Of a DNA stretch of 64,000 bases, positions 44,154-58,937 are shown piece after piece. This DNA comes from an uncultured Methanosarcinales archaeon. GTDB taxonomy: Archaea; Nanobdellota; Nanobdellia; Woesearchaeales; UBA583. The DNA lies in NCBI GenBank assembly GCA_964621065.1, contig CAZULG010000005.1:108-64107 (forward strand). The letters run 5' to 3'. How positions within the stretch are numbered: the stretch's first letter is position 1; every line of letters starts with the position of its first letter. Below the pieces are notes generated by a model that saw only the letters and a list, made by a program, of their open reading frames with translations, had not been told where the DNA came from and searched no databases. A program made the translations under genes and the position numbers.

Positions 44154-46282
44154 ATCTACAATAGTAGAAATTTTTTAATTTCTTAAATAATTGAGCTTTA
44201 AGATGGTTATATTGTTTCATCTACAATAGTAGAAATTTTTTAATTTTCTTAAATGCAAATACTGAACTTGAGAATAATATTAAGATCTACAATAGTAGAA
44301 ATTTTTTAATTTTCTTAAATTTTCTTCCTTAATCTCTCTAAGGAGCTTATCTACAATAGTAGAAATTTTTTAATTTTCTTAAATGATTTATAGCAACAAT
44401 TCAAAAATCACAACATCTACAATAGTAGAAATTTTTTAATTTTCTTAAATTGTTGAAGGTTATGAATTTGAAGAAATAGATCTACAATAGTAGAAATTTT
44501 TTAATTTTCTTAAATTCCACGAACATTATTTAAGAGATTTAAATCTACAATAGTAGAAATTTTTTAATTTTCTTAAATGAATAGAAGAGGTAACTAAAGA
44601 TGATAGAATCTACAATAGTAGAAATTTTTTAATTTTCTTAAATGCTAATGATTATAAAAATTTAATTCTCTCATATCTACAATAGTAGAAATTTTTTAAT
44701 TTTCTTAAATATTATGCAGTAGAGTTGAAAAAAAATTATCATCTACAATAGTAGAAATTTTTTAATTTTCTTAAATTTGGATTAGAAACTTATCGTATTA
44801 ATACATCTACAATAGTAGAAATTTTTTAATTTTCTTAAATTATTTGTGTAGGAGGATTATAACTCTCTTATCTACAATAGTAGAAATTTTTTAATTTTCT
44901 TAAATATTCTTCATCCTTTAAATTCTTTGATCAAGATCTACAATAGTAGAAATTTTTTAATTTTCTTAAATTAAATATTGAAATATTAGTAATAGTAGAA
45001 GATCTACAATAGTAGAAATTTTTTAATTTTCTTAAATCAAATACTTTGAGATTGGCAGAGATTTTTAATCTACAATAGTAGAAATTTTTTAATTTTCTTA
45101 AATTTGATGATTGTTGTGTTTGAGAATTTACATTATCTACAATAGTAGAAATTTTTTAATTTTCTTAAATTTTGAGTATTTTGAAGCTTACAAGCTATCT
45201 ACAATAGTAGAAATTTTTTAATTTTCTTAAATCTTGTACTGCACTTTGTGCAACTTCTCCAGATCTACAATAGTAGAAATTTTTTAATTTTCTTAAATAG
45301 CAATTGTTAATTTATGCCAATTCCCATATCTACAATAGTAGAAATTTTTTAATTTTCTTAAATCAACAGATAAAATCATTGTTAATATTATCAATCTACA
45401 ATAGTAGAAATTTTTTAATTTTCTTAAATGAGGAGGTTCATTTTATGCATCCCTCCTATCTACAATAGTAGAAATTTTTTAATTTTCTTAAATTTTAGTG
45501 GGTAATGGAGACATTGAATTATTAGAATCTACAATAGTAGAAATTTTTTAATTTTCTTAAATAATAAGTTATCAAAAAAACGCAACATTTAATCTACAAT
45601 AGTAGAAATTTTTTAATTTTCTTAAATATGTAAGTGAAGGACAAGAAGTAAATCAAATCTACAATAGTAGAAATTTTTTAATTTTCTTAAATTTCAACAG
45701 TTGATTCACTATCCCCGTAATATCTACAATAGTAGAAATTTTTTAATTTTCTTAAATGATATTAGGAATGATATTTGTGATATTATTATCTACAATAGTA
45801 GAAATTTTTTAATTTTCTTAAATTGATTGCGATTCCTTCACTACCACCTTTGATCTACAATAGTAGAAATTTTTTAATTTTCTTAAATTAGAACAGTAGA
45901 GCCATCTAATTTTCTTCTATCTACAATAGTAGAAATTTTTTAATTTTCTTAAATAAAATTAGGAATACCTGAGCGAGGATTTCATCTACAATAGTAGAAA
46001 TTTTTTAATTTTCTTAAATTCGTGTGAAGTTTTCGCGTCCAAATCAATTTTATCTACAATAGTAGAAATTTTTTAATTTTCTTAAATAACCATACGGTTT
46101 TAGGTATGGTATACTATCTACAATAGTAGAAATTTTTTAATTTTCTTAAATTTTATTGAGAGATAGAATTGATGAAGATATATCTACAATAGTAGAAATT
46201 TTTTAATTTTCTTAAATTGCCATAAGTCTTATATGCCACACATATAATCTACAATAGTAGAAATTTTTTAATTTTCTTAAAT
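44154..46282 (-). CRISPR. CRISPR array, 33 repeats (36 nt) and 32 spacers (26-33 nt), Cas12a-type repeat
   Basis: The plus-strand unit atctacaatagtagaaattttttaattttcttaaat reads ATTTAAGAAAATTAAAAAATTTCTACTATTGTAGAT on the minus strand, ending in the Cas12a handle stem-loop UCUAC-UAUU-GUAGA-U. My hand count of repeat plus spacer lengths sums exactly to 2129 nt. The distal repeat (44154-44188) is 35 nt, with one T lost. Confidence 0.97.
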
Positions 46283-46514
46283 AGGTCGATTTTAATTAGG
46301 TTTTTCTAAATATAAGGTATTATGCTATTTAAAGAGCTCTTTTATCATTTTAGAAAAATCTCTAAAACTCATTTTGCCTAGTTAAGATATTAATTTTAAA
46401 TTATAATAATATTTAAATATTTGCCTTAAAAGTACTAGAAACTAATAAAAATGATGTTTTTATATTCAGATACAATAAAAATAAAGACTAAGGTTTGCAA
46501 CTTTTGAAAATGAA
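46283..46514 (-). promoter_or_regulatory. CRISPR leader (232 nt, AT-rich) with TATA-like box ~25 nt upstream of first repeat
   Basis: It lies between the cas2 stop and the first repeat. The minus strand reads CCTTATATTTAG at 46306-46317. The degenerate repeat sits at the opposite end of the array, which supports this polarity. Confidence 0.6.
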
Positions 46515-46787
46515 TTAAAACATAACTAAATCCTCCTCCTCATTTTTAGCATATCCATATCTATGAATTTGACAACTTCCACTTAATTCAAAAATCATCA
46601 CACTATCACTTTGTGTAAATTTCTTCTCAAATTTAGATTTGATTTCACTTTTAACAATTTCAAGTAATCTCTTACTATTATTAATCTCATACACCGAGTA
46701 TTGTAATCTTCTTCCATATTCTAAAATAAATTTAGAAAATTGAGTTCTGAGTTTATCATCTTTAATATCATATGTTAAAATAATCAT
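46515..46787 (-). CDS. cas2: CRISPR-associated endoribonuclease Cas2
   Basis: MIILTYDIKDDKLRTQFSKFILEYGRRLQYSVYE is a typical Cas2 N-terminus. Length 90 aa, with a 4-nt overlap with cas1. Confidence 0.9.
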   Translation of the reverse strand: MIILTYDIKDDKLRTQFSKFILEYGRRLQYSVYEINNSKRLLEIVKSEIKSKFEKKFTQSDSVMIFELSGSCQIHRYGYAKNEEEDLVMF

Positions 46788-47758
46788 TTTTTTCCCTCCA
46801 AAGTAAATTTTGAATACTGAGAAATATCATTTTCTTTAATGAAATTTCTATAGTATGATTGAATAAATACAAATATCTCCTCTTTAAAACTTAAAATCTC
46901 TTTTAAGAAAAATTGAGAATACTTTTTATTATATTCCTTCTTAATGAAATATTGACCATTTTTCTCATAAAAGTCATTTCTATCAATTTGTTTTAAATTA
47001 AATCCTTTTCTAATTTTTCTATCAATAATACATCTAAACGGTTCAATAATATCACAAACTAACGATTTACGTTGATAAAATAATGTGTGATGAACTCCAT
47101 AATACGTATCAAATCCATATAATTCTAAATTTGCTTCAATAAAATTAAATAAATAATGATAACCAATATCTAAAAGTAAATTGAAAATATCCTCTTTTGC
47201 TCGTGGTCTTCTTCCTTTAAAATCCAAATTTTTAAAATACACTTTGAAAAATAACTTTGAAGCATTTCCTTCAATTCCTAACATCTCCTGATTAGAAGAA
47301 CAACTATTAATTTGAGAAATTAAAAATTTCATTTTATCAATATGTAATTTCTCCTGAGTTGTTTTATAACGCAGAGATTTCATTAAATATAATTGATTTT
47401 CAACTTTATTTGAAATTAAAAATTTAGAAATTTCTAATTTATTAACATCCAAATACTGCTTTTTTCTCAATAAAAAATTTCCTTTATTTTCAGGAATAAC
47501 ACTATAATACATTTTCAAATTAAAATTTAAAAAGATAATTGGAAAAGAAAATCTCTTAGCTTGTTTAATCAATACAGAAGTAATTGAAAACTCTCCATAA
47601 ATAAACACTAAAAATATTTTATGACAAGAATGCTGTAAAATCGTTTTATTATTCTCATCAACTACAACTAAATTAGAATTTCTAAATTTAATTTTCTTTG
47701 AAGAATCACTATCAATAAATAATAGTTGTTTTGACATAAAATCAGGTCTTGACATCAT
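46784..47758 (-). CDS. cas1: CRISPR-associated integrase Cas1
   Basis: GIEGNASKLFF, NLLLDIGYHYL and GVHHT...LVCDIIEPFR are the conserved Cas1 E, N..L..GY and H...D/E boxes. Length 324 aa. Confidence 0.9.
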   Translation of the reverse strand: MMSRPDFMSKQLLFIDSDSSKKIKFRNSNLVVVDENNKTILQHSCHKIFLVFIYGEFSITSVLIKQAKRFSFPIIFLNFNLKMYYSVIPENKGNFLLRKKQYLDVNKLEISKFLISNKVENQLYLMKSLRYKTTQEKLHIDKMKFLISQINSCSSNQEMLGIEGNASKLFFKVYFKNLDFKGRRPRAKEDIFNLLLDIGYHYLFNFIEANLELYGFDTYYGVHHTLFYQRKSLVCDIIEPFRCIIDRKIRKGFNLKQIDRNDFYEKNGQYFIKKEYNKKYSQFFLKEILSFKEEIFVFIQSYYRNFIKENDISQYSKFTLEGKK

Positions 47759-48309
47759 TTTTTATAATAATCACACAATTCCTTGTAAATACACATTTCA
47801 CATTTTTTAGGATTTTGAGAAAATAAGGTGTCAAATAAATCAAAACTTCTCATTTGTGAAATAACTTCTTTCAATCGTCTTTTATTCTCATCAGTTGGTA
47901 AATCAATTGAAATTTTAGAATTATTTTTCATAGAATAAAAACTCAATTTCTCAACCTCATAACCCATTTCAATTAAACAAAAATATTGACTCCAAATTTG
48001 TAAATAATATCCTTCATAAATAGTTTTAATAACATTCTTTCTCTCAATGAGTTCTTTATTATCTAAATCTAATAAATCAATTTTTCCAATAACTCCTAAC
48101 TCTTCACTATAAATATCAATTCCTTGTAATATATTCTTTTTTGATGAATATGTTTGAGTATCTACATTCTTATGAGCATCTTTTCCTTTTTGTTGATATG
48201 TTGAGTGAAATACTTTTTCATCAAATTGATAATACAAATTATGAAAATAAATTGAACGAGGACAGAAAATAAAGTCATTTAAATTAGAGATAATGATATT
48301 TTCCTCCAT
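47755..48309 (-). CDS. cas4: CRISPR-associated exonuclease Cas4
   Basis: N-terminal Cys (FIFCPRSIYF) plus a C-terminal CEMCIYKELC four-Cys cluster. RecB-type IDLLDL...ELIERK and YLQIWSQY (QxxxY) motifs. Confidence 0.9.
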   Translation of the reverse strand: MEENIIISNLNDFIFCPRSIYFHNLYYQFDEKVFHSTYQQKGKDAHKNVDTQTYSSKKNILQGIDIYSEELGVIGKIDLLDLDNKELIERKNVIKTIYEGYYLQIWSQYFCLIEMGYEVEKLSFYSMKNNSKISIDLPTDENKRRLKEVISQMRSFDLFDTLFSQNPKKCEMCIYKELCDYYKK

Positions 48310-48311
48310 TT

Positions 48312-51300
48312 TTATTTTTTTAAATAATTGAGATTTCTAAATGTTTTAATTCCAATTTGATATGCTCCATTATTATCACCAGTTTCAATAAAATTAATAT
48401 TTTTTAATTTTAGACTATGTTTTATAGTGGAATCATTTGTAGAATCATAACCACACTCATTACAGATTAATTTATCTCCGTTTTTAAAAAGTCTTTTAGT
48501 TTTCAAACTATCACAATTGGGACATTTCTTAGATGTATAACTAGGATCCACAAAAAAAATTCTTCCAAATTGTTTATATTGTAAATCTGCTTTTTCAATT
48601 CCAATATTTTCATAATTTTCAACACTTCTAAAAGGAGGAACTAAATGCAATATTTCACTATTCTTATTTGGAATTTTAAATAATTTTTTTAACAATTGCA
48701 TTTCAAAATAATGATAAGTTCCAAGACCTGCTAATTTTGCATTTGCAACTTTCTTATAATCAACATCACTTTCTTTTGAATTATCTTTATAACTTTTTTC
48801 TAGTATAATCCCATTTAAGCCATCAATATAGCTTACCCAACATTTTGATAAATTTTCAACAGAAATATAAATATTGTAGTTATACTTTTCAATAAAATAA
48901 TTAATTACACCTATCATATTTGCAGTAATACCTTTTTTTAATCCATCAGCAGAATCTAATTCTATTATACGATTAATTTCTTTTTCTCTATCTTTTTCAG
49001 AAATATTTTCATCAGTCATAACTTCTTTAAAGTTATTTAATAAATCTAAAATTTCTTTATGATTTAAATTTTCATATTTTTCTCCAACTCCAAAAGCAGA
49101 TATTAAAGTACTTTCTTTTAATTTTTTAATTTTTTCACAATCATCATTACTATTTGCAATTCTTAAAATTAAATCTTTATTTTCTTTGTTTTGCATTTGA
49201 TATTGTAATTTTCTTCTATATGCTAGTTGTTTTAATTTAATATTTTGATTATTTTCTTTTAAATTATCTTCTTCAAATCCTTTAAATCTGTCTTTTTTAA
49301 CTTTTATTTTACTTAAATCAACTAATACTTTTTCTCCTTTAATCGTTGTTTCAACTCTTAAATTTGTTAAATCCAAAATATTTCTCTCTTCTAAAAAAAT
49401 ATGCTCCCAAATCTTTTTTTCAGTATCAAAACTTCTTGTGTAAATATAAAAATTTCCTTGTATTTCACCATCTTGATTTAATATACATAAAGTAGCTAAG
49501 CACTTTTCTCCTCTATCAATACCTAAAATGTAAAAAGGTTTATTTTTAATAAAACTGTTTTCATTAAATATTTTAATTTCGTTTATTAAATTTCTTTTTT
49601 TATATAATTCTAAAACCTCTTTCTTTGAGAATCCTTGATTTTGTGGAACTATTTCACATAAAAATTGAGCATTTAATTGAAATCTAGAATATCTTTTACC
49701 ACTAGGATAATTAGGAGTTGAAAATCTATAACTTAAATCAATTTCTGGATGTAGTCTATAATTAAGACTATTTTCATCAAAAATTAAATTCCAATCCTTT
49801 GTAAATTGATTTTTTAAATTTTTTTTTTGAGAGATTAAATTTTGATTTACAATAGGAAAAATAAAACAACCTTTATCTTTAATTAATTCATTTACTTTTT
49901 CTTTTGAGAGATTAAATTTCTTTAAAATATATCCTTTTTTATCAATTTCTTTTTCAATATCTTCATAAAAATTACAATTAGAAAAATTAAAATTAAATTC
50001 ATTCCAATATTGAATTTTTGCCATAGTTGATTCTTGTAAAGAATTTTTTAATATATTTAAAAAATATTTATTTTTTTTAGTTTTGTCCCAATTAATTTTA
50101 ATTTCATTAAAATCATAGTCTAAATTAAATTCTTTATATGCTCCTTTATTTTTAATAATTTTAATTAAGGTTTTAGATGTCAAAGATTTAACATAAAATC
50201 CTTTTAGGTTCCCATTATTTTTTTTAAGTAAATCTTTATATAAAATATCTTTATAATTTTTAGGAATTGTTAATACATATTTATCTTTGTTTTCATCTTC
50301 TATAACTATCCCTAAATCCTCAATTTTATTTATTTCATATCTCTCATTTAGCTTATCTCTTAACTCAGAAAATTTTTTTCCATAATCTTGTGAAAGAGTT
50401 TTAAATATTTGTGTTAATTTTTTATATTCTTTAATATTATTTTTTTGCTCACCTCTTTTAAGACCTAACTTTTGTTTTGCTTTATTATAATCTTTGTATA
50501 AATCAGAATTATTTTCTTTATTATTTATTCTACCCTCATCACTCAAATTAATCCAACTAATAATATTTTTATTTATACTGCCAATATCATCATTTTTATT
50601 AAAAGCAGGAATTTTTTTGTTTTGATTAATCTCAATTTTAAATTCTTTTAACTCATTCAATATTTCTTTAACTTTTTGTTTATATTCTTCTAAGTTTTTA
50701 TTTCTATTTTTGAAATTATTATTATAATCGATATTTTTTAATTGATCTTTTAGATACGAAAGTTTTGAAAATAAAATAAAATTATCATTACTCTTAATAT
50801 TAATCTCAAAGTTAGTTTTTAAAAAATTTTCACATAATTCTCTATCAAAACTTACTTCATAATATTCACTTTTAGCTAAATTCTCCCAAGCATAATCAAA
50901 AGCTAATTTTATAGGGTAATTATTTAAATCAAAAACTTCTTTTTCCTCGTTATATTCTTTTCCAATTTCAATATTTTCTCCAATATTATTTAAAATTGTA
51001 TAAATTTCATCTTGATTTAAATTTAAATCTTGTTTATAATTTTCCTCTAAAAATTTTGAAAGCTCATATTTAACAATCGGTTTTAATGGTTTAGATTTAA
51101 ACAATTGAATTGATTGAATTAAAATATTTAATTTTGCTTTTTCTTCTTTATCATTTTTTTTATAGACTGAATTTTTAAAATGTTCTATTTTTTCATTTTT
51201 ATTTAAAAAAAAATTTCTAATTTCAAATTTATTTTTACTTTTTAAGCTATTTAATAAATCAATTAATTTTAGTTCAGAAATAATATCTTTGATTTCCAAA

Positions 51301-52139
51301 TTATAATTTTCAACCTTTTTCTCTAAAGTATAAGGGTTCAAAGTAATTTTTTTATAAAATGAATTCCCTCCATAATATTTAAATAAATTTTTCAATTCTT
51401 CAATTTGGTTTTCTAATTCAATTCTTAATTCATCATTAACACCAAAGTATTTCCAATTATTTTTTTTATTTTCATATAAAAAGTTCAAATCTAGAAAAGT
51501 TATACTCTTATCATTTAAAGGTTTTAAAATTTCATTTGCTATATTAAATATAGCTAAACTTTTTTTTCTAAAATCAACTAAATTTGGTTTTTGATTTGAT
51601 AAATTATTTTTAAGAGTTAATTCATATTTTTGAATCTCAAATTCCAACTCCTTTTGCAATTTTTGAAAATAAAAAAAATTCTTATTCCAATAATTTGTAA
51701 TTTTATCTTTATTTAATAATGAATTTAAAGAAGTATTATCAGAATAAATTATTCTTACACATTTTTTTTGTTTTTTAGAATATTTTTCCTTTGGAATATC
51801 AAATAAACATTTTCTTCCAAGAATTCTATAATACTCTTTAATTATGAAAAGTTTATCACTTCTTATATAAATATTTCTCCATTCCTTATAAAAAGAATTA
51901 ATTTTAGTTATACAATCTTTAACTTCTATAAGTAATTCTTCTTCATTAAAGTCTTTCTTAGTATATAGACTCTCTTTTAATTTATCATAAGTATTTTTAA
52001 TTTCATTTTCTAACACTTTATGAGTGTAATGTGTTTTTTCTTCATTTCTAATATAATTTTTTTCATAATTTAAAGAAAGTGCAAATCTAATTGTCTTATT
52101 TAAACTATATCTATTTTTCATATAACTATATTCTTCCAT
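48312..52139 (-). CDS. Second, divergent type V effector: Cas12a2-like nuclease (Cas12a paralogue with inserted domain and zinc ribbon)
   Basis: N-terminal YSLNKTIRFAL and processing-like LHPEI...SGKRYSRFQLNAQF. RuvC-I ILGIDRGEK (Asp codon 49515-49517), RuvC-II ISVENLSK (Glu 48855-48857), RuvC-III TGDNNGAYQIG (Asp 48375-48377). The D-to-E spacing is 220 aa, against 90 aa in the neighbouring Cas12a. A CPNC...CNEC zinc ribbon (48453-48524) replaces the Nuc region, and there is no LQ(L/M)RNS motif. Confidence 0.75.
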   Translation of the reverse strand: MEEYSYMKNRYSLNKTIRFALSLNYEKNYIRNEEKTHYTHKVLENEIKNTYDKLKESLYTKKDFNEEELLIEVKDCITKINSFYKEWRNIYIRSDKLFIIKEYYRILGRKCLFDIPKEKYSKKQKKCVRIIYSDNTSLNSLLNKDKITNYWNKNFFYFQKLQKELEFEIQKYELTLKNNLSNQKPNLVDFRKKSLAIFNIANEILKPLNDKSITFLDLNFLYENKKNNWKYFGVNDELRIELENQIEELKNLFKYYGGNSFYKKITLNPYTLEKKVENYNLEIKDIISELKLIDLLNSLKSKNKFEIRNFFLNKNEKIEHFKNSVYKKNDKEEKAKLNILIQSIQLFKSKPLKPIVKYELSKFLEENYKQDLNLNQDEIYTILNNIGENIEIGKEYNEEKEVFDLNNYPIKLAFDYAWENLAKSEYYEVSFDRELCENFLKTNFEINIKSNDNFILFSKLSYLKDQLKNIDYNNNFKNRNKNLEEYKQKVKEILNELKEFKIEINQNKKIPAFNKNDDIGSINKNIISWINLSDEGRINNKENNSDLYKDYNKAKQKLGLKRGEQKNNIKEYKKLTQIFKTLSQDYGKKFSELRDKLNERYEINKIEDLGIVIEDENKDKYVLTIPKNYKDILYKDLLKKNNGNLKGFYVKSLTSKTLIKIIKNKGAYKEFNLDYDFNEIKINWDKTKKNKYFLNILKNSLQESTMAKIQYWNEFNFNFSNCNFYEDIEKEIDKKGYILKKFNLSKEKVNELIKDKGCFIFPIVNQNLISQKKNLKNQFTKDWNLIFDENSLNYRLHPEIDLSYRFSTPNYPSGKRYSRFQLNAQFLCEIVPQNQGFSKKEVLELYKKRNLINEIKIFNENSFIKNKPFYILGIDRGEKCLATLCILNQDGEIQGNFYIYTRSFDTEKKIWEHIFLEERNILDLTNLRVETTIKGEKVLVDLSKIKVKKDRFKGFEEDNLKENNQNIKLKQLAYRRKLQYQMQNKENKDLILRIANSNDDCEKIKKLKESTLISAFGVGEKYENLNHKEILDLLNNFKEVMTDENISEKDREKEINRIIELDSADGLKKGITANMIGVINYFIEKYNYNIYISVENLSKCWVSYIDGLNGIILEKSYKDNSKESDVDYKKVANAKLAGLGTYHYFEMQLLKKLFKIPNKNSEILHLVPPFRSVENYENIGIEKADLQYKQFGRIFFVDPSYTSKKCPNCDSLKTKRLFKNGDKLICNECGYDSTNDSTIKHSLKLKNINFIETGDNNGAYQIGIKTFRNLNYLKK

Positions 52140-52149
52140 TTTTCAATTA

Positions 52150-52992
52150 TTATCTCTTATCTTCTCCCAATTTATTACTTTTAATTTCATCAAAATAATT
52201 CTCTTTTGAAACTACTTTTTGTTTTGTTTCTTTTTCTAATTCAACTCGTGCATTTTTTGCAATAGTTCCACCTTTTTTTGCATCTTTATTTAATTTATCA
52301 AAACCTTTTGAATCATTAACTTGAGTAATTTCAGTAGTTGCTCTCTCACCTAACATTGAAAAAATTAACTCTAAATCACTCATATGATCTCTTAAATTTG
52401 CTTTTGTTTTCAAAGGAAAATTCTTAATCTCTTTATGTTCATTAATTGATACTTCAAATGTTGCTTTATGAATTTCATTAGTTAAAATTGCAAAGTCTTT
52501 TGGTTTTTCAATACCTCTATTTCTCCATTCATCAGTTAATTCTTGTCTAATTGCAATTCCTCTAAGTCGTTTATCAATCCAATCTTTTGGATACCCTTTT
52601 AATTCATAATATTCTTTAACCCTATTTTGAGCAAGTTCTGGATTCTCTATTTCTTCAATTCTCTCTTGCCCTAATTGTGCAAGCCACATTTTAAAAGGTT
52701 CAGCTCTTTTTGAAGGAATTGACTGAATAATTCTAAAAGCACCTTTTGTAGTAGTACAATTCATTTTTTGAACTCCTCCTTTTGTTTCAACTTCAAGGAT
52801 ATGGACAATTTGTCCCCACCCTTCAAATAGTCCTAAATCTCTTTTTTTTAATTTATTAATATAATCCTTTACATTAACACTTTGAGTTATAGCATAGACA
52901 ATATCTTCCACAACATACCACCATTCATCATTAAACCAAGTTCTTCTAATTCGTTTATCTTCAAAAACAATAATTTTATTTTTCTCATCCAT
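52150..52992 (-). CDS. Bro-N domain / DinD-like (phage antirepressor-type) protein embedded between the two effector genes
   Basis: The N-terminal IIVFEDKRIRRTWFNDEWWYVVEDIVYAI... is Bro-N-like. The C-terminal LRDHMSDLELIFSMLGERATTEI...GGTIAKNARVELEKETKQKV parallels E. coli DinD as I recall it. I use the ATG at 52992; the track's TTG at 53013 would overlap the cas12a stop. Confidence 0.65.
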   Translation of the reverse strand: MDEKNKIIVFEDKRIRRTWFNDEWWYVVEDIVYAITQSVNVKDYINKLKKRDLGLFEGWGQIVHILEVETKGGVQKMNCTTTKGAFRIIQSIPSKRAEPFKMWLAQLGQERIEEIENPELAQNRVKEYYELKGYPKDWIDKRLRGIAIRQELTDEWRNRGIEKPKDFAILTNEIHKATFEVSINEHKEIKNFPLKTKANLRDHMSDLELIFSMLGERATTEITQVNDSKGFDKLNKDAKKGGTIAKNARVELEKETKQKVVSKENYFDEIKSNKLGEDKR

Positions 52993-53003
52993 TTTTTTTA
53001 ATA

Positions 53004-56000
53004 TTAACTCCAATTTCTTCTAATCATTTCATTTAAAAATTCATTTCTCTCTATTTTTAAGTCATTAAATTTGATTTTTTCTATATCTTCAAATTCTTTA
53101 ATCTTATTTAATACCATTAAACCTTTAAGTCCAATATGATATGCTCCGTTACAATCAGCATTATCAACTTCTTCTTTATTTGCATTTCTTGAATCAAAGA
53201 AATATCCTTTTTTATTTTTTACACAAGATAAAATATAATCTCCTTCTTTCTCAGTAATTTTATTAATTTTTAATTCATTATCTGTATACGAATTTCTAAG
53301 TTGTAAAATTAATTTCAAATTTTTAATTATATTCTCTAAGAAAAATTTATTTTGTTTTACAATATCATCAATTAAATTTTGAGACTCTTCAATTTTAATA
53401 TTAAAATCATTAAATAATTTTTTTAACTCTTCATTGACATTAACAGATTTTGTTGTCCAATTATTATTTTGATTTTTATCTCTACTTTGAACTAATTTAA
53501 TTCCATTTGAATAAATTTTCCAGTCATCCTTAACTAAATCTTTAACTCCAAAAGAAGAATACTTAAATGAGAACTCAAACAAATCTTCATCTTTTAAATA
53601 TCTTATTGAATCAAATTTGTTGATAAAATCTTTTGCTTGACTCTCATTCTCATACTTAGGATATAATCTATTTACAAATGCAGTTTTTGGACAAATTTTT
53701 GAAGTTAAATAAGGATCAATGTAAAATAAAATACCAGTTTGTTTTCCAATATCTTTTAAAACATTGACTTCGGGTGTTAATTGATATGCTTTTAAATTTC
53801 CTCCTATTTCGTCATTTTTTTTGTCTTTAAATACTAAAAAATTTAATTTAGAAATTAACATTTTCTCAAATTTTTCATATACTTGTTTCTCAACTTTAAA
53901 TCTTCCTCTCTTAAACCCATAATTCAAATCTTCTAATACAATTATTGCATTATTTTCAACTGCAATTTTTGAGATTTTGTGAATAATTTGGGACAAAAAT
54001 CCTTCTTTTAGTTCTTTGATTGTAGAAATATTTTGCCAAGACTTTCTTTTCTCATCTCTTTCTTTTTCAAGTTTAGACAATTTCTGATGATAATTAACTT
54101 TCCTATTAAAAGAATCGTTAATTAAGTTAAATGAACCTTTTTCTTTGATATTTCCTTTTGTATCAAGCAATGTATAATACAGTAAATGCCTTTCTCCTCT
54201 ATCCAAACTTAAAATATTAATATTTTTAGAATTTTGTTTAATCACTTTATTAACTTCATTATTAATTCTAACTCTTGAATTTGATTTGAAGTTTAATGTT
54301 ATTGGAACATGAAATAAAACTTTATCTTGAGTATACCTTTTATTTTTACCAATATCGTAAGAAAATAAACTTTCTTCTTTTCCATTAATAGGATCTTTAT
54401 TTTTTGTTGGTAAATTTTTTGGATGAGTTGGTTTATATTCTATTGATTTCTCCCTATAGAAAATTTCAGCCTGTCCATTTAATTTAAATACAACATCCTC
54501 TAAATTTTCTTCAGAAAATAACTCTTCAAAATACATCGTATGAAGATTTTTCTTAGAATTATAATTCTCTTTTTTAATTTTATTTTGAGAAAAATCTTTG
54601 TTATAGATTTGAAATAAGTATAATTTATTCTCTTCAACAAGTTGCTTAATATATTCTTCATTAATTTTTTTGAAATTTAATTGATAACAAGAACTCTCTA
54701 CATCAAAATAAAATTGTGAAATATCTTCATACTCTCTTGATTCTTTCCAATTAAATTTAAAATGTTTATAAGATTCGTGCCTTTGAAATCCAAGTTTAAA
54801 ATAATCAATTAGTTTTACTAAAGATTCTTTGAATTTAGAAAAATTTGTTTTTCTAAATTCTGTTTTAAAATAACCTTTATCATAAATTTCAATTATTTCT
54901 TGAACTGGCAGATTATACTTTTCAACATTTGGTGAAAAATTATCTCCTTTTGATCTAATAAAAAGTCTAGGAATATTTTTATTATCTGGTTTCTGAAAAT
55001 CATAATTGAGGATTTCAAAATTCCCTTTATTGACTGAAAAATCATTTTCATTATTTTCAATTTTCTTAGGAGAGATTGCAATATAATAATTGGTTTTGTT
55101 ATTTATTTTCTTTTTTAAAATTACAGCAGATTTAGTTTCAAAATTTGAATCCCAACCATTTAAAAAACTACTAGATTGAAAATTTAATTTAAATTTTTGA
55201 GTTGAAAAAGGTTTTTGAGAAATATAGTTTCTAACTTTATTATATAGGGGAGTAATTTGAGATATTAAATTTAATAACTCATCATATATCTGATAAAAAT
55301 GTTCATCCCTATACTCATTTTCAAATTTTAATAGTTTCACAAAATGATAATAGTTTTGAAGAGCATCTAAGAATTCTTTAATTACGTTGACAACTTCATT
55401 ATATTTATCTTGAGTTAATTTTTTTTGACTCTCATTTTTAAATTCTTCAAATTTAATTGAATTAAAAGACTTATATGAATCTTCAATATTTTTTAATAAA
55501 TCTATTGATTTATGTTCAACTGAAAACTTAAAATCCTTAAAAAAATCAAATAATGTAATAATTTCATCAGAATCATCTCTTGTTTCTTTAATTCTTGAAA
55601 TTGAGTTTTGAATTTCTTTAAAACAAAAATAATCAGTTTTCAGATATTTCTCAATTTCCTCTTGTTGTTTTTTATTTAACTTCTCAATATCATAATTTCT
55701 TGATTTAATATACTCTCTTTTCAAATCTTCTTTAATTACATTATAATCTCCAAAAATATTTTGAGAAATATCAGAAATAAACTTTCCATTTTTAATTTTT
55801 ATTAGACTTAAATCAAAGTTTTCAGAGTCCAAGTTTTCAAATAGATTGGAAAATTCATCAAATTGATTTTTAGAATTTAAATTATTATAAAATTCATCAA
55901 TTTTTGTTAAAACTTCATAATCTGAATTGAATTTATCAAATGTGAATAAACTTTCTTTATCACTTAAAATTTGATTAAATAAAACTTGTAATTTTGATTT

Positions 56001-56876
56001 TTTCAAAATTTTAATTTGCTCTCTAGTCAAATCCTTATCTCTTTGAATTAACTCATTAATTCTAGAATTAATTTTCCCAATTATCCTTTTATTATATTTT
56101 TCAATTCCACTTTGATTTAAAAATAAATTATAATTTTGTATTGATAAAAATTCAAGTAAAGTTAGACCTTCTAATTCATCTTTCAATTCAACTTGTAACT
56201 CTCCAAATTTATCATTTGAAACCTCTAATATTTTTTTGAATTTATCATAATTTGCTAAGTATTTAGGCAAATTATCATCAACAATTCTGTAAAATATTGA
56301 AGTTGGTATATTATTCTCACTAAACACATTTTCTCTATTTGAATTAAATCCTGTAAAATAAGTGGTAAATCCTTTAAACTTCTCAACTAATTTTTTATCT
56401 TCAATCCTATTTCTCTTATCTAACCACAAAGGTAGAACTTTTTCATAAAATTCTTTTTTAAAAAATGTTGAGAACTCGTCTTTAAATTTTAATTTAACTA
56501 ACTCCTTCAAATTTTTTCTAAGTTCTTTATTTAATTTATCAAAATTATCTCTTTTATTTTTATTTTGCTTATCTCTAATAAATTCTAAATAAATATTTTC
56601 AAATTCCTCAAGTTTAGTTTTTGATATTTTTGTGAATTTTAAACTTCTCTCAATAAACTCTTTAAAGTACTCATCTGCAATTTTTTTTACTATCTTAAAA
56701 TCTTCATTTCTTTGCTTATCTTCTTCAATTATTTTTTCAATCGAATTCAAGCTTTCATCAATCACCAGTTCTTCTCCATCAAATCCAACTGGTTTTAGCT
56801 CAAAACGTAGTGTTTTACTTAAACTATACTGATTAGTTAGTCCTCCCCAGATATTTTCTGTATTCATTTGTTGCAT
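53004..56876 (-). CDS. cas12a: Type V-A effector Cas12a (Cpf1)
   Basis: N-terminal TNQYSLSKTLRFELKPVG and WED processing motif THPKN...KNKRYTQDKVLFHVPITLNF. RuvC-I LSLDRGERHLLY (Asp 54201-54203), RuvC-II IVLEDLNYGFK (Glu 53931-53933), IDPYLTSK, Nuc motif ILQLRNS, RuvC-III NADCNGAYHIGLKG (Asp 53154-53156). Spacings of 90 and 259 aa are typical of Cas12a. Confidence 0.95.
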   Translation of the reverse strand: MQQMNTENIWGGLTNQYSLSKTLRFELKPVGFDGEELVIDESLNSIEKIIEEDKQRNEDFKIVKKIADEYFKEFIERSLKFTKISKTKLEEFENIYLEFIRDKQNKNKRDNFDKLNKELRKNLKELVKLKFKDEFSTFFKKEFYEKVLPLWLDKRNRIEDKKLVEKFKGFTTYFTGFNSNRENVFSENNIPTSIFYRIVDDNLPKYLANYDKFKKILEVSNDKFGELQVELKDELEGLTLLEFLSIQNYNLFLNQSGIEKYNKRIIGKINSRINELIQRDKDLTREQIKILKKSKLQVLFNQILSDKESLFTFDKFNSDYEVLTKIDEFYNNLNSKNQFDEFSNLFENLDSENFDLSLIKIKNGKFISDISQNIFGDYNVIKEDLKREYIKSRNYDIEKLNKKQQEEIEKYLKTDYFCFKEIQNSISRIKETRDDSDEIITLFDFFKDFKFSVEHKSIDLLKNIEDSYKSFNSIKFEEFKNESQKKLTQDKYNEVVNVIKEFLDALQNYYHFVKLLKFENEYRDEHFYQIYDELLNLISQITPLYNKVRNYISQKPFSTQKFKLNFQSSSFLNGWDSNFETKSAVILKKKINNKTNYYIAISPKKIENNENDFSVNKGNFEILNYDFQKPDNKNIPRLFIRSKGDNFSPNVEKYNLPVQEIIEIYDKGYFKTEFRKTNFSKFKESLVKLIDYFKLGFQRHESYKHFKFNWKESREYEDISQFYFDVESSCYQLNFKKINEEYIKQLVEENKLYLFQIYNKDFSQNKIKKENYNSKKNLHTMYFEELFSEENLEDVVFKLNGQAEIFYREKSIEYKPTHPKNLPTKNKDPINGKEESLFSYDIGKNKRYTQDKVLFHVPITLNFKSNSRVRINNEVNKVIKQNSKNINILSLDRGERHLLYYTLLDTKGNIKEKGSFNLINDSFNRKVNYHQKLSKLEKERDEKRKSWQNISTIKELKEGFLSQIIHKISKIAVENNAIIVLEDLNYGFKRGRFKVEKQVYEKFEKMLISKLNFLVFKDKKNDEIGGNLKAYQLTPEVNVLKDIGKQTGILFYIDPYLTSKICPKTAFVNRLYPKYENESQAKDFINKFDSIRYLKDEDLFEFSFKYSSFGVKDLVKDDWKIYSNGIKLVQSRDKNQNNNWTTKSVNVNEELKKLFNDFNIKIEESQNLIDDIVKQNKFFLENIIKNLKLILQLRNSYTDNELKINKITEKEGDYILSCVKNKKGYFFDSRNANKEEVDNADCNGAYHIGLKGLMVLNKIKEFEDIEKIKFNDLKIERNEFLNEMIRRNWS

Positions 56877-56987
56877 ATTTCATTTATGAAAATTAGCTTT
56901 ATAAATATGTCTCCTGTAATAAGTAGAAAAAAATAAACTTAATAAAAACAAATCTTATAAATTACAATACACTTTATTGATATAGAA
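56877..56987. promoter_or_regulatory. Divergent promoter region with two TATA-like boxes ~22-25 nt from each ATG
   Basis: tttataaata at 56898-56907 lies about 22 nt upstream of the cas12a ATG (56876, minus strand). cttataaatt at 56954-56963 lies about 25 nt upstream of the gatE ATG (56988). No Shine-Dalgarno-like sequence is seen, so the geometry suggests leaderless mRNAs. Confidence 0.4.
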
Positions 56988-58937
56988 ATGTCACAATTAT
57001 CAAAACTCCTCTTTCTCAAAGACTTACAAGAACTCAATTATGAAGATATCAAACTCACAGCAGGTCTTGAAATTCATCAACAACTCAATACAGGAAAATT
57101 ATTCTCACAAGCACCGTGTAAAATCGTTCCAAATGAAGAGTTGAATAAATCAATTACACGAAAACTCAGGTTTTCAAAAGCAGAAGATGGTTCAGTTGAT
57201 AAAGCAGCAATGCACGCATTTGTTCAGCAAAATACGTACAAATACTATTATAATGATGAAATTGCAACACTTGTTGATTTAGACGAAGAACCGCCAACAA
57301 AGCCTAATGAGCAAGCACTTCACACTGCCATTCAAGTTGGACAAATGCTTAATATTTCATTTTTCAACACATTTGTATTTATGCGAAAACTCATTGTTGA
57401 TGGATCAATAACAAGTGGATTTCAACGAACTGCATTATTGGGAGTGAGTGGAAATATTTCAACAAATCATGGTGAAATTCCAATTCATGCAATTAATTTA
57501 GAAGAAGACTCATCAAGAATAATTTCAAAAGAGACCAATGAGCACATTTACGCACTTGATAGACAAGGAATCCCACTCATTGAAATTACAACTGGGCCAG
57601 TTATGCACACTCCTGAAGCGGTTCAAGAAGTTGCACTTGAAATTGGAAATATTTTGAGAAGTTTTAGGGCAACAAGAAGAGGGCTTGGAACAATTCGACA
57701 AGACGTGAATGTCTCAGTAGGTGTTGGTCAAAGAGTTGAGATTAAAGGAGCACAAAATTTAGAACTTATTCCTCAAGTCATTATCGCAGAAGCAAAACGA
57801 CAACTCATTATGCACTCAATTCAAGAAGAGTGTAAACTCAGAAATATTACACCTCAAAATATTAACGAACATTCACAAATTCAAGAAATAACTCAACTAT
57901 TTCAATTTACAACTGCAAAGGTGATTTCTCAAGCACTAAAACAAGACAACTCAGGTGTGTTTGCAATTCCTCTTCACAATATGAGAGGAATACTTGGACA
58001 CGAAATTCAAGATAATTATCGATTTGCAACAGAAATCTCAAATAGAAATAAGAAACGATTCACTCAAATTAGAGGATTATTTCACAGCGATGAACTACCA
58101 AATTATGGGATGAGTAAAGAAGAAGTCAGCTCAATATATCAAGCACTCAATATTGACAAAGAGCATGATGGGTTTATTCTCCTCGCGCACAACTCAACTA
58201 TTGCAAAACAATCACTTGAATACATAAAAGAAATTATTTGTGAGTTAATTCAAGGAGTTCAAGAAGAAGTAAGACAAGTTGATCCTAAAGGAACAATCAC
58301 CCAATTTCTCAGACCAATGCCTGGTGCAAGTAGAATGTATCCTGAAACAGACATTTTTACAATTCCTCGCAAATCAATTCCACTTCAAAAGCTACAAGAA
58401 ACACTTCCTGAAAAATATGATCACAAAATTAAACGATTAGAAAAAGAATTCAATTTAAATAAAGATGAGATCCTCTCACTACTTGAAAAATATGAAGAAG
58501 ACACAATTACTACACTCATTGAATCAACTCATCTCAAAGCTAAAGAATTATATAACTACATCATCACCATTCCAAAAGATATTAAAAAACGAGAACAAAT
58601 TGAACCCGTTGACTTCTCACACGAGCTCCTTCACGATTTACTCACAACAATTACAAAAAATAATATGAACACACAAAGTATTCGAGACATATTTATCTCA
58701 CTCTATCAAAAACAAATTCAAGATGCAATTAATGTTGAACAATATTTACAAGAAAATAATTTACTCCAGGAGCAACTCGGTGTTGATGAAATTCGAGCAT
58801 CAATTCAAACAATTATTGGACAAAATCCAAATGCACCTTTTGGAGCATTAATGGGATTGTGTATGAAAGAGTTCGGAAAACAAGCAGATGGAAAAATTAT
58901 TAGCAAAATTTTAAATGAAGAACTCAGTAACAAATAA
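56988..58937 (+). CDS. gatE: Glutamyl-tRNA(Gln) amidotransferase subunit E (archaeal)
   Basis: LTAGLEIHQQLNTGKLF, LDEEPP and the GatB/E core with a YqeY-like tail. The 649-aa length fits GatE rather than GatB. Confidence 0.85.
   Translation: MSQLSKLLFLKDLQELNYEDIKLTAGLEIHQQLNTGKLFSQAPCKIVPNEELNKSITRKLRFSKAEDGSVDKAAMHAFVQQNTYKYYYNDEIATLVDLDEEPPTKPNEQALHTAIQVGQMLNISFFNTFVFMRKLIVDGSITSGFQRTALLGVSGNISTNHGEIPIHAINLEEDSSRIISKETNEHIYALDRQGIPLIEITTGPVMHTPEAVQEVALEIGNILRSFRATRRGLGTIRQDVNVSVGVGQRVEIKGAQNLELIPQVIIAEAKRQLIMHSIQEECKLRNITPQNINEHSQIQEITQLFQFTTAKVISQALKQDNSGVFAIPLHNMRGILGHEIQDNYRFATEISNRNKKRFTQIRGLFHSDELPNYGMSKEEVSSIYQALNIDKEHDGFILLAHNSTIAKQSLEYIKEIICELIQGVQEEVRQVDPKGTITQFLRPMPGASRMYPETDIFTIPRKSIPLQKLQETLPEKYDHKIKRLEKEFNLNKDEILSLLEKYEEDTITTLIESTHLKAKELYNYIITIPKDIKKREQIEPVDFSHELLHDLLTTITKNNMNTQSIRDIFISLYQKQIQDAINVEQYLQENNLLQEQLGVDEIRASIQTIIGQNPNAPFGALMGLCMKEFGKQADGKIISKILNEELSNK

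Follow-up and report, generated by a model that had tools for sequence, protein, structure and literature searches.

The stretch of DNA analyzed here (64 kb of contig CAZULG010000005.1 from an uncultured archaeon, called the window in what follows) carries a complete tandem cas12a/cas12a2 type V-A locus with one shared array (44167-56987). Between its two effector genes lies an open reading frame (ORF) for a DinD-like protein of the PDC-S13 family, which is the subject of this report. All the genes concerned are on the minus strand, as given by the ORF listing and translation. The first gene of the operon, cas12a (53004..56876, minus strand), encodes a product of 1290 amino acids (aa) that matches TIGR04330 with 1033 bits and the Pfam models RuvC_1, REC1, NUC and PI. 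It is followed by the DinD-like gene (52150..52992, minus strand, 280 aa from its ATG) and then by cas12a2 (48312..52139, minus strand, 1275 aa). Judged by alignment, the product of this last gene is a genuine Cas12a2, an RNA-triggered collateral nuclease, matching SuCas12a2 from end to end (residues 8-1273 on residues 6-1231 of PDB 8d49, E 6.7e-225). The DinD-like gene starts 11 nucleotides (nt) past the cas12a stop codon (last base 53004) and ends 10 nt short of the cas12a2 ATG at 52139. An earlier note, made from the letters of the DNA, had described an ORF placed on the same strand between cas12a and a Cas12a2-like gene with gaps of 11 and 10 nt; this layout is confirmed when the ATG at 52992 is taken as the start, and the Cas12a2-like call is borne out by the match to SuCas12a2.

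In the ORF listing, the DinD-like frame spans 52150-53013 (minus strand) with a TTG start and 287 aa. An internal ATG at 52992 gives a 280-aa product, and the product is most likely of this length because every homologue and every PADLOC or PHROG profile match begins at that ATG. The upstream extension to the TTG (52993..53013, minus strand, seven codons overlapping the cas12a stop) is probably not translated, and a syntenic relative, L001, has no equivalent of it. The frame itself is not a chance ORF, since more than 8000 database proteins match its translation, the best of them at 86-90% identity, and the ratio of nonsynonymous to synonymous substitution rates (dN/dS) is 0.11-0.27 against four homologues from different contexts. 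By this measure the gene is under purifying selection in every context compared.

The remainder of the locus has a standard composition. Downstream of cas12a2, an adaptation module (46515..48309, minus strand; Pfam Cas_Cas4, Cas_Cas1 and CRISPR_Cas2) comprises cas4 (47755-48309), cas1 (46784-47758) and cas2 (46515-46787), all on the minus strand. The shared CRISPR array (44167..46282, minus strand) has about 31-32 repeats of 36 nt each, whose 3' end on the minus strand is AATTTCTACTATTGTAGAT, the canonical Cas12a handle. Upstream of cas12a, the divergent intergenic region separating it from gatE (56877..56987, read on the minus strand) contains a TATA-like box, TTTATAAA, at 56898-56905. This region is likely to be the operon promoter, which remains putative, and the 21 nt between the box and the cas12a ATG would be consistent with a near-leaderless archaeal transcript. 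The GC content of the DinD-like gene (0.28) equals the mean of the window, whereas that of the two effector genes is lower (0.20-0.22). The host looks like a DPANN archaeon, with a GatE-type amidotransferase, a family B polymerase, 28% GC and nearest homologues in Woesearchaeota and Nanoarchaeota. No tRNA or tmRNA gene was found in the 64-kb window with ARAGORN, and no Rfam family reached its gathering score there.

Family membership and predicted structure

The identity of the gene as a member of its family is secure. The protein carries an N-terminal Bro-N domain (PF02498, E 5.2e-10, 40.2 bits against a gathering cut-off of 25.6, residues 22-113), and the profile search thereby recovered the Bro-N N-terminus that had been proposed from the sequence. 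The Bro-N domain (residues ~17-95) is followed by long linker helices and then by a helical domain at the C-terminus (residues ~136-256); the latter is basic (isoelectric point 9.3), contains many invariant Arg and Lys residues and carries the family motif DFAILTNE...NLRDHMxDLEL. The PADLOC PDC-S13 model PDLC04920 is matched over its full length (E 4.1e-100, residues 8-280 on profile positions 1-273 of 286), and residues 156-252 also match another model of PDC-S13, PDLC04919 (E 6e-6). Among PHROGs, the full-length match is phrog_15286, a family of unknown function, whilst the Ant antirepressor families match only the N-terminus and weakly. Pfam found no Ant C-terminal domain in the protein, and with the C-terminal 166 residues alone it returned no match even at E <= 1. 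In domain searches of the window protein, no enzymatic domain, no nuclease, transposase or integrase domain and no membrane effector domain was detected. The likeness to phage Bro-N and Ant antirepressors is thus limited to the N-terminal domain; the C-terminal domain is a different one, and the family is nearly absent from sequenced phages and present in cellular operons. The source names of the matches include "Bro-N domain-containing", "phage antirepressor" and, from JGI, "DNA-damage-inducible protein D", so the earlier note was right that such proteins are annotated as antirepressors.

The relation to DinD of Escherichia coli is one of family and not of orthology. E. coli DinD (L018:3761-4585) also has a Bro-N domain (E 1.5e-7) and matches PDLC04919 at E 2.4e-121, and its residues 122-250 match PDLC04920, the model of the window protein, at E 2.2e-16. 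Because the PDC-S13 profiles cross-match reciprocally, the two proteins can be placed, at the level of profiles, in one PADLOC family with both domains in common. In contrast, a direct BLASTP comparison of the two was not significant (E 0.19), hhalign with narrow family profiles gave a weak match to DinD (E 0.004) over the motif DFAI...DHM...EL, and the NCBIfam DinD equivalog NF008573, which gives 488 bits with E. coli DinD (cut-off 242), did not match the window protein even at E <= 10. The link to DinD rests therefore on the broader PADLOC profiles and not on direct sequence comparison, and on account of the weak or missing matches the window protein is best classed as belonging to a sister subfamily of DinD rather than as its orthologue. 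The DinD-type C-terminus announced in the earlier note stands accordingly at the level of the superfamily but not at that of the equivalog. The two genes also differ in setting: dinD is a solitary, LexA-regulated chromosomal gene, whereas the window gene is embedded in an operon of an archaeon without a LexA/RecA system.

The subfamily is large. A cut-off of E <= 1e-3 admits 11,061 representatives of clusters at 50% identity and one of E <= 1e-30 still 1,083, and many of the closest matches come from Woesearchaeota and Nanoarchaeota. An alignment of 28 members at 58-86% identity has 63 invariant columns, with an almost constant core at residues ~85-175. Rare fusions (P0179, P0271), possibly artefacts of gene calling, join an N-terminal EAD11 domain to a full DinD-like module or a reverse-transcriptase domain to a DinD-like C-terminal domain. 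PDC-S13 itself is a PADLOC phage defence candidate that belongs, as described by Payne et al. (bioRxiv 10.1101/2024.01.29.577857), to a set defined by guilt by embedding. The window gene resembles that set in its full-length match, in sitting as one gene within a defence operon of several genes and in having relatives in type I restriction-modification (RM) systems; it differs in that the host operon is here a class 2 type V-A system (and a type I-B system in Arcobacter) and not BREX, DISARM or type I RM. In our literature search no paper was found that mentions PDC-S13 by name, and nothing was found that links DinD to RM or CRISPR operons.

A structural model was computed with AlphaFold2 from a 28-sequence alignment (model m84c98fda96ca, mean predicted local distance difference test score, pLDDT, 79). 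It is predicted to consist, in order, of a beta-hairpin, helices, a second beta-hairpin with a helix (together the Bro-N domain, residues ~17-91), two long linker helices (98-131) and four long helices (136-256). When this model was compared by Foldseek with 350,542 PDB chains, six had E < 1e-3 and all six were DdrC of Deinococcus radiodurans (8u0g, 7qvb, 7udi), with E values of 7e-6 to 3e-4 and a probability of 1.0; the next match had E 0.8. A fold search of BFVD returned generic Bro-N proteins only, one viral protein consisting of Bro-N alone superposing with a root-mean-square deviation of 3.1 over 92 columns. In DdrC, a domain-swapped dimer, a linker joins an N-terminal domain made of a beta-hairpin and a winged helix-turn-helix to a bundle of four helices (PMC9303277). 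It binds nicks or double-strand breaks in pairs and compacts or circularises damaged DNA, and it has been described as lacking sequence homologues outside Deinococcus (PMC11347143). The model of the window protein finds in DdrC its only significant structural match in the PDB, with the same order of elements (an N-domain of beta-hairpin and winged helix, then long helices as linker, then a helical bundle at the C-terminus), and both DdrC and E. coli DinD, the namesake of the window family, are DNA-damage-inducible. In contrast, the two share no sequence similarity, and DdrC is specific to Deinococcus by description and not tied to defence operons. We take the resemblance as a lead.

Genomic contexts of the gene and of its homologues

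The neighbours of cas12a2 were surveyed in other genomes. Only six relatives of the window Cas12a2 came from a word-index search and ten loci from a pattern scan of 185,579 species genomes, and about 11 Cas12a2 loci were sampled besides the window; the Cas12a2 homologues P0123 and P0125-P0127 lie outside this sample. No DinD-like homologue was found in loci L004-L017, either by tblastn with the window proteins or in the gene tables, and recurrent adjacency to cas12a2 or cas12a was accordingly not seen in these independent loci. Five of them (L009, L011, L013, L014 and L016) have cas12a-cas12a2-cas4-cas1-cas2 in tandem in the order of the window, and the ~20-350 nt between their effectors leave no room for such a gene. 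In the locus with the closest Cas12a2 (67% identity, from a Nanoarchaeota metagenome-assembled genome, L004/L008), cas12a2 is preceded by a sugar nucleotidyltransferase gene. Tandem cas12a/cas12a2 loci are known to share one array, SuCas12a2 works alone in E. coli, and the original description of Cas12a2 mentions no accessory gene (PMC9811890). The DinD-like gene is therefore a one-off among the sampled Cas12a2 loci, and by this comparison it does not appear to be a dedicated part of the Cas12a2 machinery. All five bacterial tandem loci have cas12a directly beside cas12a2, which suggests that this arrangement is ancestral and that the DinD-like gene is an insert.

The history of the window locus is illuminated by L001, a syntenic relative whose homologue is 86% identical: polB and gatE are followed there by the DinD-like gene, with nucleotide identities of 76% in gatE and 85% in the DinD-like gene. 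When L001:5940-6200 was compared with window positions 52950-53030 and 56850-57020, the intergenic regions next to gatE aligned, including the TATA-like box GACA(G/T)ATTTATAAA. In L001, nothing separates the promoter region from the DinD-like gene: the cas12a ORF is missing as a whole, as in a clean insertion or deletion. Because only 1-2 nt of the L001 contig remain beyond the stop codon of the DinD-like gene, both a gain of cas12a in the window lineage and a loss of it in that of L001 are compatible with this alignment.

Other contexts of the family were drawn from 11 look-ups, plasmids and IMG/VR, a small and non-random sample that gives no estimate of frequency. Near relatives occur in RM operons, among other places. 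The gene for a protein of 77% identity (P0003, L002/L003) is flanked by mod and res of a type III RM system and overlaps each of them by 4 nt, and that for a protein of 90% identity (P0002, L105) comes directly after a type III mod gene, whose 3' end it overlaps by 4 nt; nucleotide homology between L105 and the window is restricted to the ORF. Type I RM operons carry the gene between hsdS and hsdM (P0006, 75%, L019/L020) and, on an IMG/VR contig (L100), between hsdM and hsdS. The PADLOC model for type I specificity subunits, PDLC03083, is matched by DinD at positions 6-267 of 717 (E 3e-114), from which the existence of recurrent DinD-HsdS fusion proteins is implied. On plasmid pACLO of Arcobacter cloacae (NZ_CP053834.1, L108:5494-7959), a full-length homologue of 40% identity occupies the junction of cas4 and cas1b in a type I-B operon, which makes two independent cases of embedding in a CRISPR-Cas locus, the second in a type unrelated to V-A. 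In another case (P0032, L112-L116:4001-8173), a gap of 37 nt separates the gene from a downstream gene for a UvrD-helicase/PD-(D/E)XK protein of 1104 aa; the two stay together from assembly to assembly whilst the flanking genes (SLFN/Fic-like, GmrSD) vary, and they have the look of a module of two genes within a defence island of variable content. Solitary copies were found in surroundings resembling defence islands (L024, with MNT/HEPN, CARF and GmrSD genes, and L109) and near a type I-D cas3 gene and transposases (L107), and dinD of E. coli is likewise a solitary chromosomal gene. A variant closer to DinD proper, of 405 aa and with two Bro-N domains, lies between the genes for the large and small subunits of ribonucleotide reductase with gaps of 5-6 nt (L110:3520-8222, L111:1-3275).

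The insertions of the gene into operons are precise with respect to gene junctions, with 4-nt overlaps or gaps of 5-11 nt, and homology between contexts is restricted to the ORF. Embedding within defence operons, on which the definition of PDC-S13 is based, is observed for the window gene in type V-A and for homologues in type I RM, type III RM and type I-B systems. Members of the family recur, embedded or as fusions, in no fewer than four kinds of DNA-cutting systems that are unrelated to one another. A precedent for a functionally distinct gene inside a restriction operon is the anticodon nuclease PrrC (EcoprrI), which, according to Payne et al. (bioRxiv 10.1101/2024.01.29.577857), is almost exclusively embedded in type I RM operons. 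The comparison has its limits, as PrrC is an ATPase-nuclease held latent by the RM complex, whereas the window protein has neither an enzymatic domain nor a fixed host system.

Phage genomes were not found to be a usual location. Only 4 of 50,697 GenBank phage records contain a homologue, and all four are unannotated faecal fragments of 5-7 kb. On IMG/VR contigs there were 273 matches, and 59 of the best 80 are no more than 5 kb away from a contig end. A gene of this family is not ordinarily part of a phage genome, contrary to the earlier note in so far as it named prophages, beside defence islands, as the usual home of such genes.

Candidate roles of the embedded gene

The reading that we prefer, held tentatively and, taken as a whole, with somewhat less than even confidence, is that of a co-transcribed accessory cassette encoding a non-enzymatic binder of DNA lesions, generic to DNA-cutting defences. 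The cassette would be as large as the DinD-like ORF itself, set into a tandem cas12a-cas12a2-cas4-cas1-cas2 operon that is standard in all other respects, and the cas12a promoter would drive its transcription together with that of the effectors. Its product would have no enzymatic activity and would combine a Bro-N domain (winged-helix-like) with a basic helical domain in a predicted fold resembling DdrC. It would bind damaged or broken DNA (nicks, ends, recombination intermediates) once the co-expressed nucleases have cut, and would control the fate of these lesions, most plausibly by hindering recombinational repair of the RecA/RadA type. As a result, Cas12a cleavage and the collateral double-stranded DNA damage by Cas12a2 would be harder to reverse for the invader or the infected cell. 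This action would be generic to DNA-cutting defences, independent of the host system and not specific for Cas12a2. E. coli DinD (PcsA), an SOS-inducible protein, is reportedly an inhibitor of post-synaptic RecA filaments. Interference with repair is favoured here because DinD, the sole studied relative, is LexA-regulated (PMC6590174) and is listed among the regulators of RecA filaments in a source citing Uranga et al. 2011 (PMC4457935). That Cas12a2 destroys double-stranded DNA collaterally is known from its original description (PMC9811890).

Several points weigh against this reading. The lesion-binding mechanism as a whole is inferred, and the window protein is but remotely related to DinD, the single member that has been studied; moreover the archaeal host has RadA and not RecA. 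The opposite sign, in which host DNA would be stabilised so that the cell recovers, fits the analogy with DdrC equally well. The likeness to DdrC is one of fold alone, with TM-scores of 0.31-0.49: the family profile and DinD retrieve no DdrC from the PDB sequences at E <= 10, and no sequence link to any solved structure was found. A poor model of E. coli DinD (pLDDT 58) also has DdrC as its first match, but at E 0.78. Finally, a nuclease partner is not obligatory, as solitary copies occur among housekeeping genes (L021-23, L117-121) and as the copy between nrdA and nrdB makes clear that embedding is not confined to defence operons. A bolder form of the preferred reading would make the DinD/PDC-S13 family, with its thousands of near-invariant proteins in both bacteria and archaea, the widespread counterpart of DdrC and a general lesion-management partner of DNA-cutting immunity (type I and III RM, Cas3, Cas12a, Cas12a2 and RecB-like nucleases), setting here the balance between death and recovery after collateral damage by Cas12a2; this we consider doubtful.

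Among the rival explanations, the possibility that the gene is an autonomous anti-phage system, merely co-located and co-expressed with the CRISPR effectors and able to sense and block phage alone, deserves the most attention, although it too is on the unlikely side. It would account for the full-length match to PDC-S13, for the solo copies in neighbourhoods resembling defence islands (L024, L109) and for the rare EAD11 and reverse transcriptase fusions. However, neither an enzymatic nor a membrane effector domain is detectable; PDC-S13 is not reported as tested in the accessible text of its source, some copies are found in non-defence settings (nrdA/nrdB and housekeeping genes), and the DinD-HsdS fusions and the constant pairing with a helicase-nuclease suggest work alongside nucleases. 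Another reading makes the gene a mobile ORF, selfish or neutral, that would insert in a precise, homing-like manner at operon gene junctions and persist with no contribution to CRISPR immunity. The junction between nrdA and nrdB is a classic site for free-standing mobile genes. The copy found there, the restriction of homology to the ORF, the precision of placement in all cases and the single occurrence among sampled Cas12a2 loci are all in line with such mobility. The protein has, however, no nuclease, transposase or integrase domain, its core is highly conserved across phyla under strong purifying selection, its chromosomal position is stable in several lineages, and defence operons prevail among the contexts sampled, small and non-random as that sample is; we judge a selfish ORF quite unlikely. 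Of three roles suggested in the earlier note, an insertion that happened to land between the effectors comes closest to these findings as far as insertion goes, but a selfish and fortuitous one undersells both the recurrent embedding and the purifying selection.

The other two roles, a regulator of Cas12a2 and a sensor or adaptor, fared less well. As a dedicated regulator, sensor or safety catch, the protein could act on Cas12a2 transcriptionally, through DNA binding by Bro-N, or post-translationally, through binding of the nuclease, and the position of the gene directly upstream of cas12a2 with a 10-nt gap, the potentially suicidal nature of Cas12a2 (PMC9811890) and the occurrence of Bro-N domains in regulators and antirepressors speak for this idea. 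Yet the gene is absent from all the other Cas12a2 loci sampled, including the one with the closest Cas12a2 and the five tandem loci, SuCas12a2 is active in E. coli without such a partner (PMC9811890), proteins of 77-90% identity are encoded in type III RM operons, and in the syntenic L001 the gene stands behind the same promoter without cas12a. A role specific to Cas12a2 is largely refuted by this lack of conservation and is very unlikely, and a sensor or adaptor fails on the same absence, the nearest relatives being in type III or type I RM operons or elsewhere. Least credible of all, with hardly any probability left to it, is the view that a phage antirepressor, a prophage remnant or an anti-CRISPR gene landed in the locus. 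Database names such as "phage antirepressor protein", the weak N-terminal matches to PHROG Ant families and the IMG/VR matches point that way; the last, however, cluster at contig ends, homologues are scarce in phage records, the protein lacks the Ant C-terminal domain, no other phage gene was seen near it in the gene listing of the window, and the gene fits the logic of the operon and is under purifying selection. A prophage remnant or anti-CRISPR was rejected on these grounds.

Combined, these results identify a member of a known but uncharacterised family (PDC-S13/DinD-like) in a new kind of host operon. From the lack of conservation of the gene as a safety catch or regulator, it follows that Cas12a2 systems do not generally need such a wedged gene. 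Guilt by embedding, by which the family had been flagged in RM systems, is extended here to CRISPR-Cas operons, of two types that are unrelated to each other. One member of the family is E. coli DinD, an SOS protein whose role is uncertain, and its fold may be that of the DNA-break sensor DdrC. If this is true, the binding of breaks and the control of recombinational repair would become a testable hypothesis for a very large and conserved family that accompanies immune nucleases.

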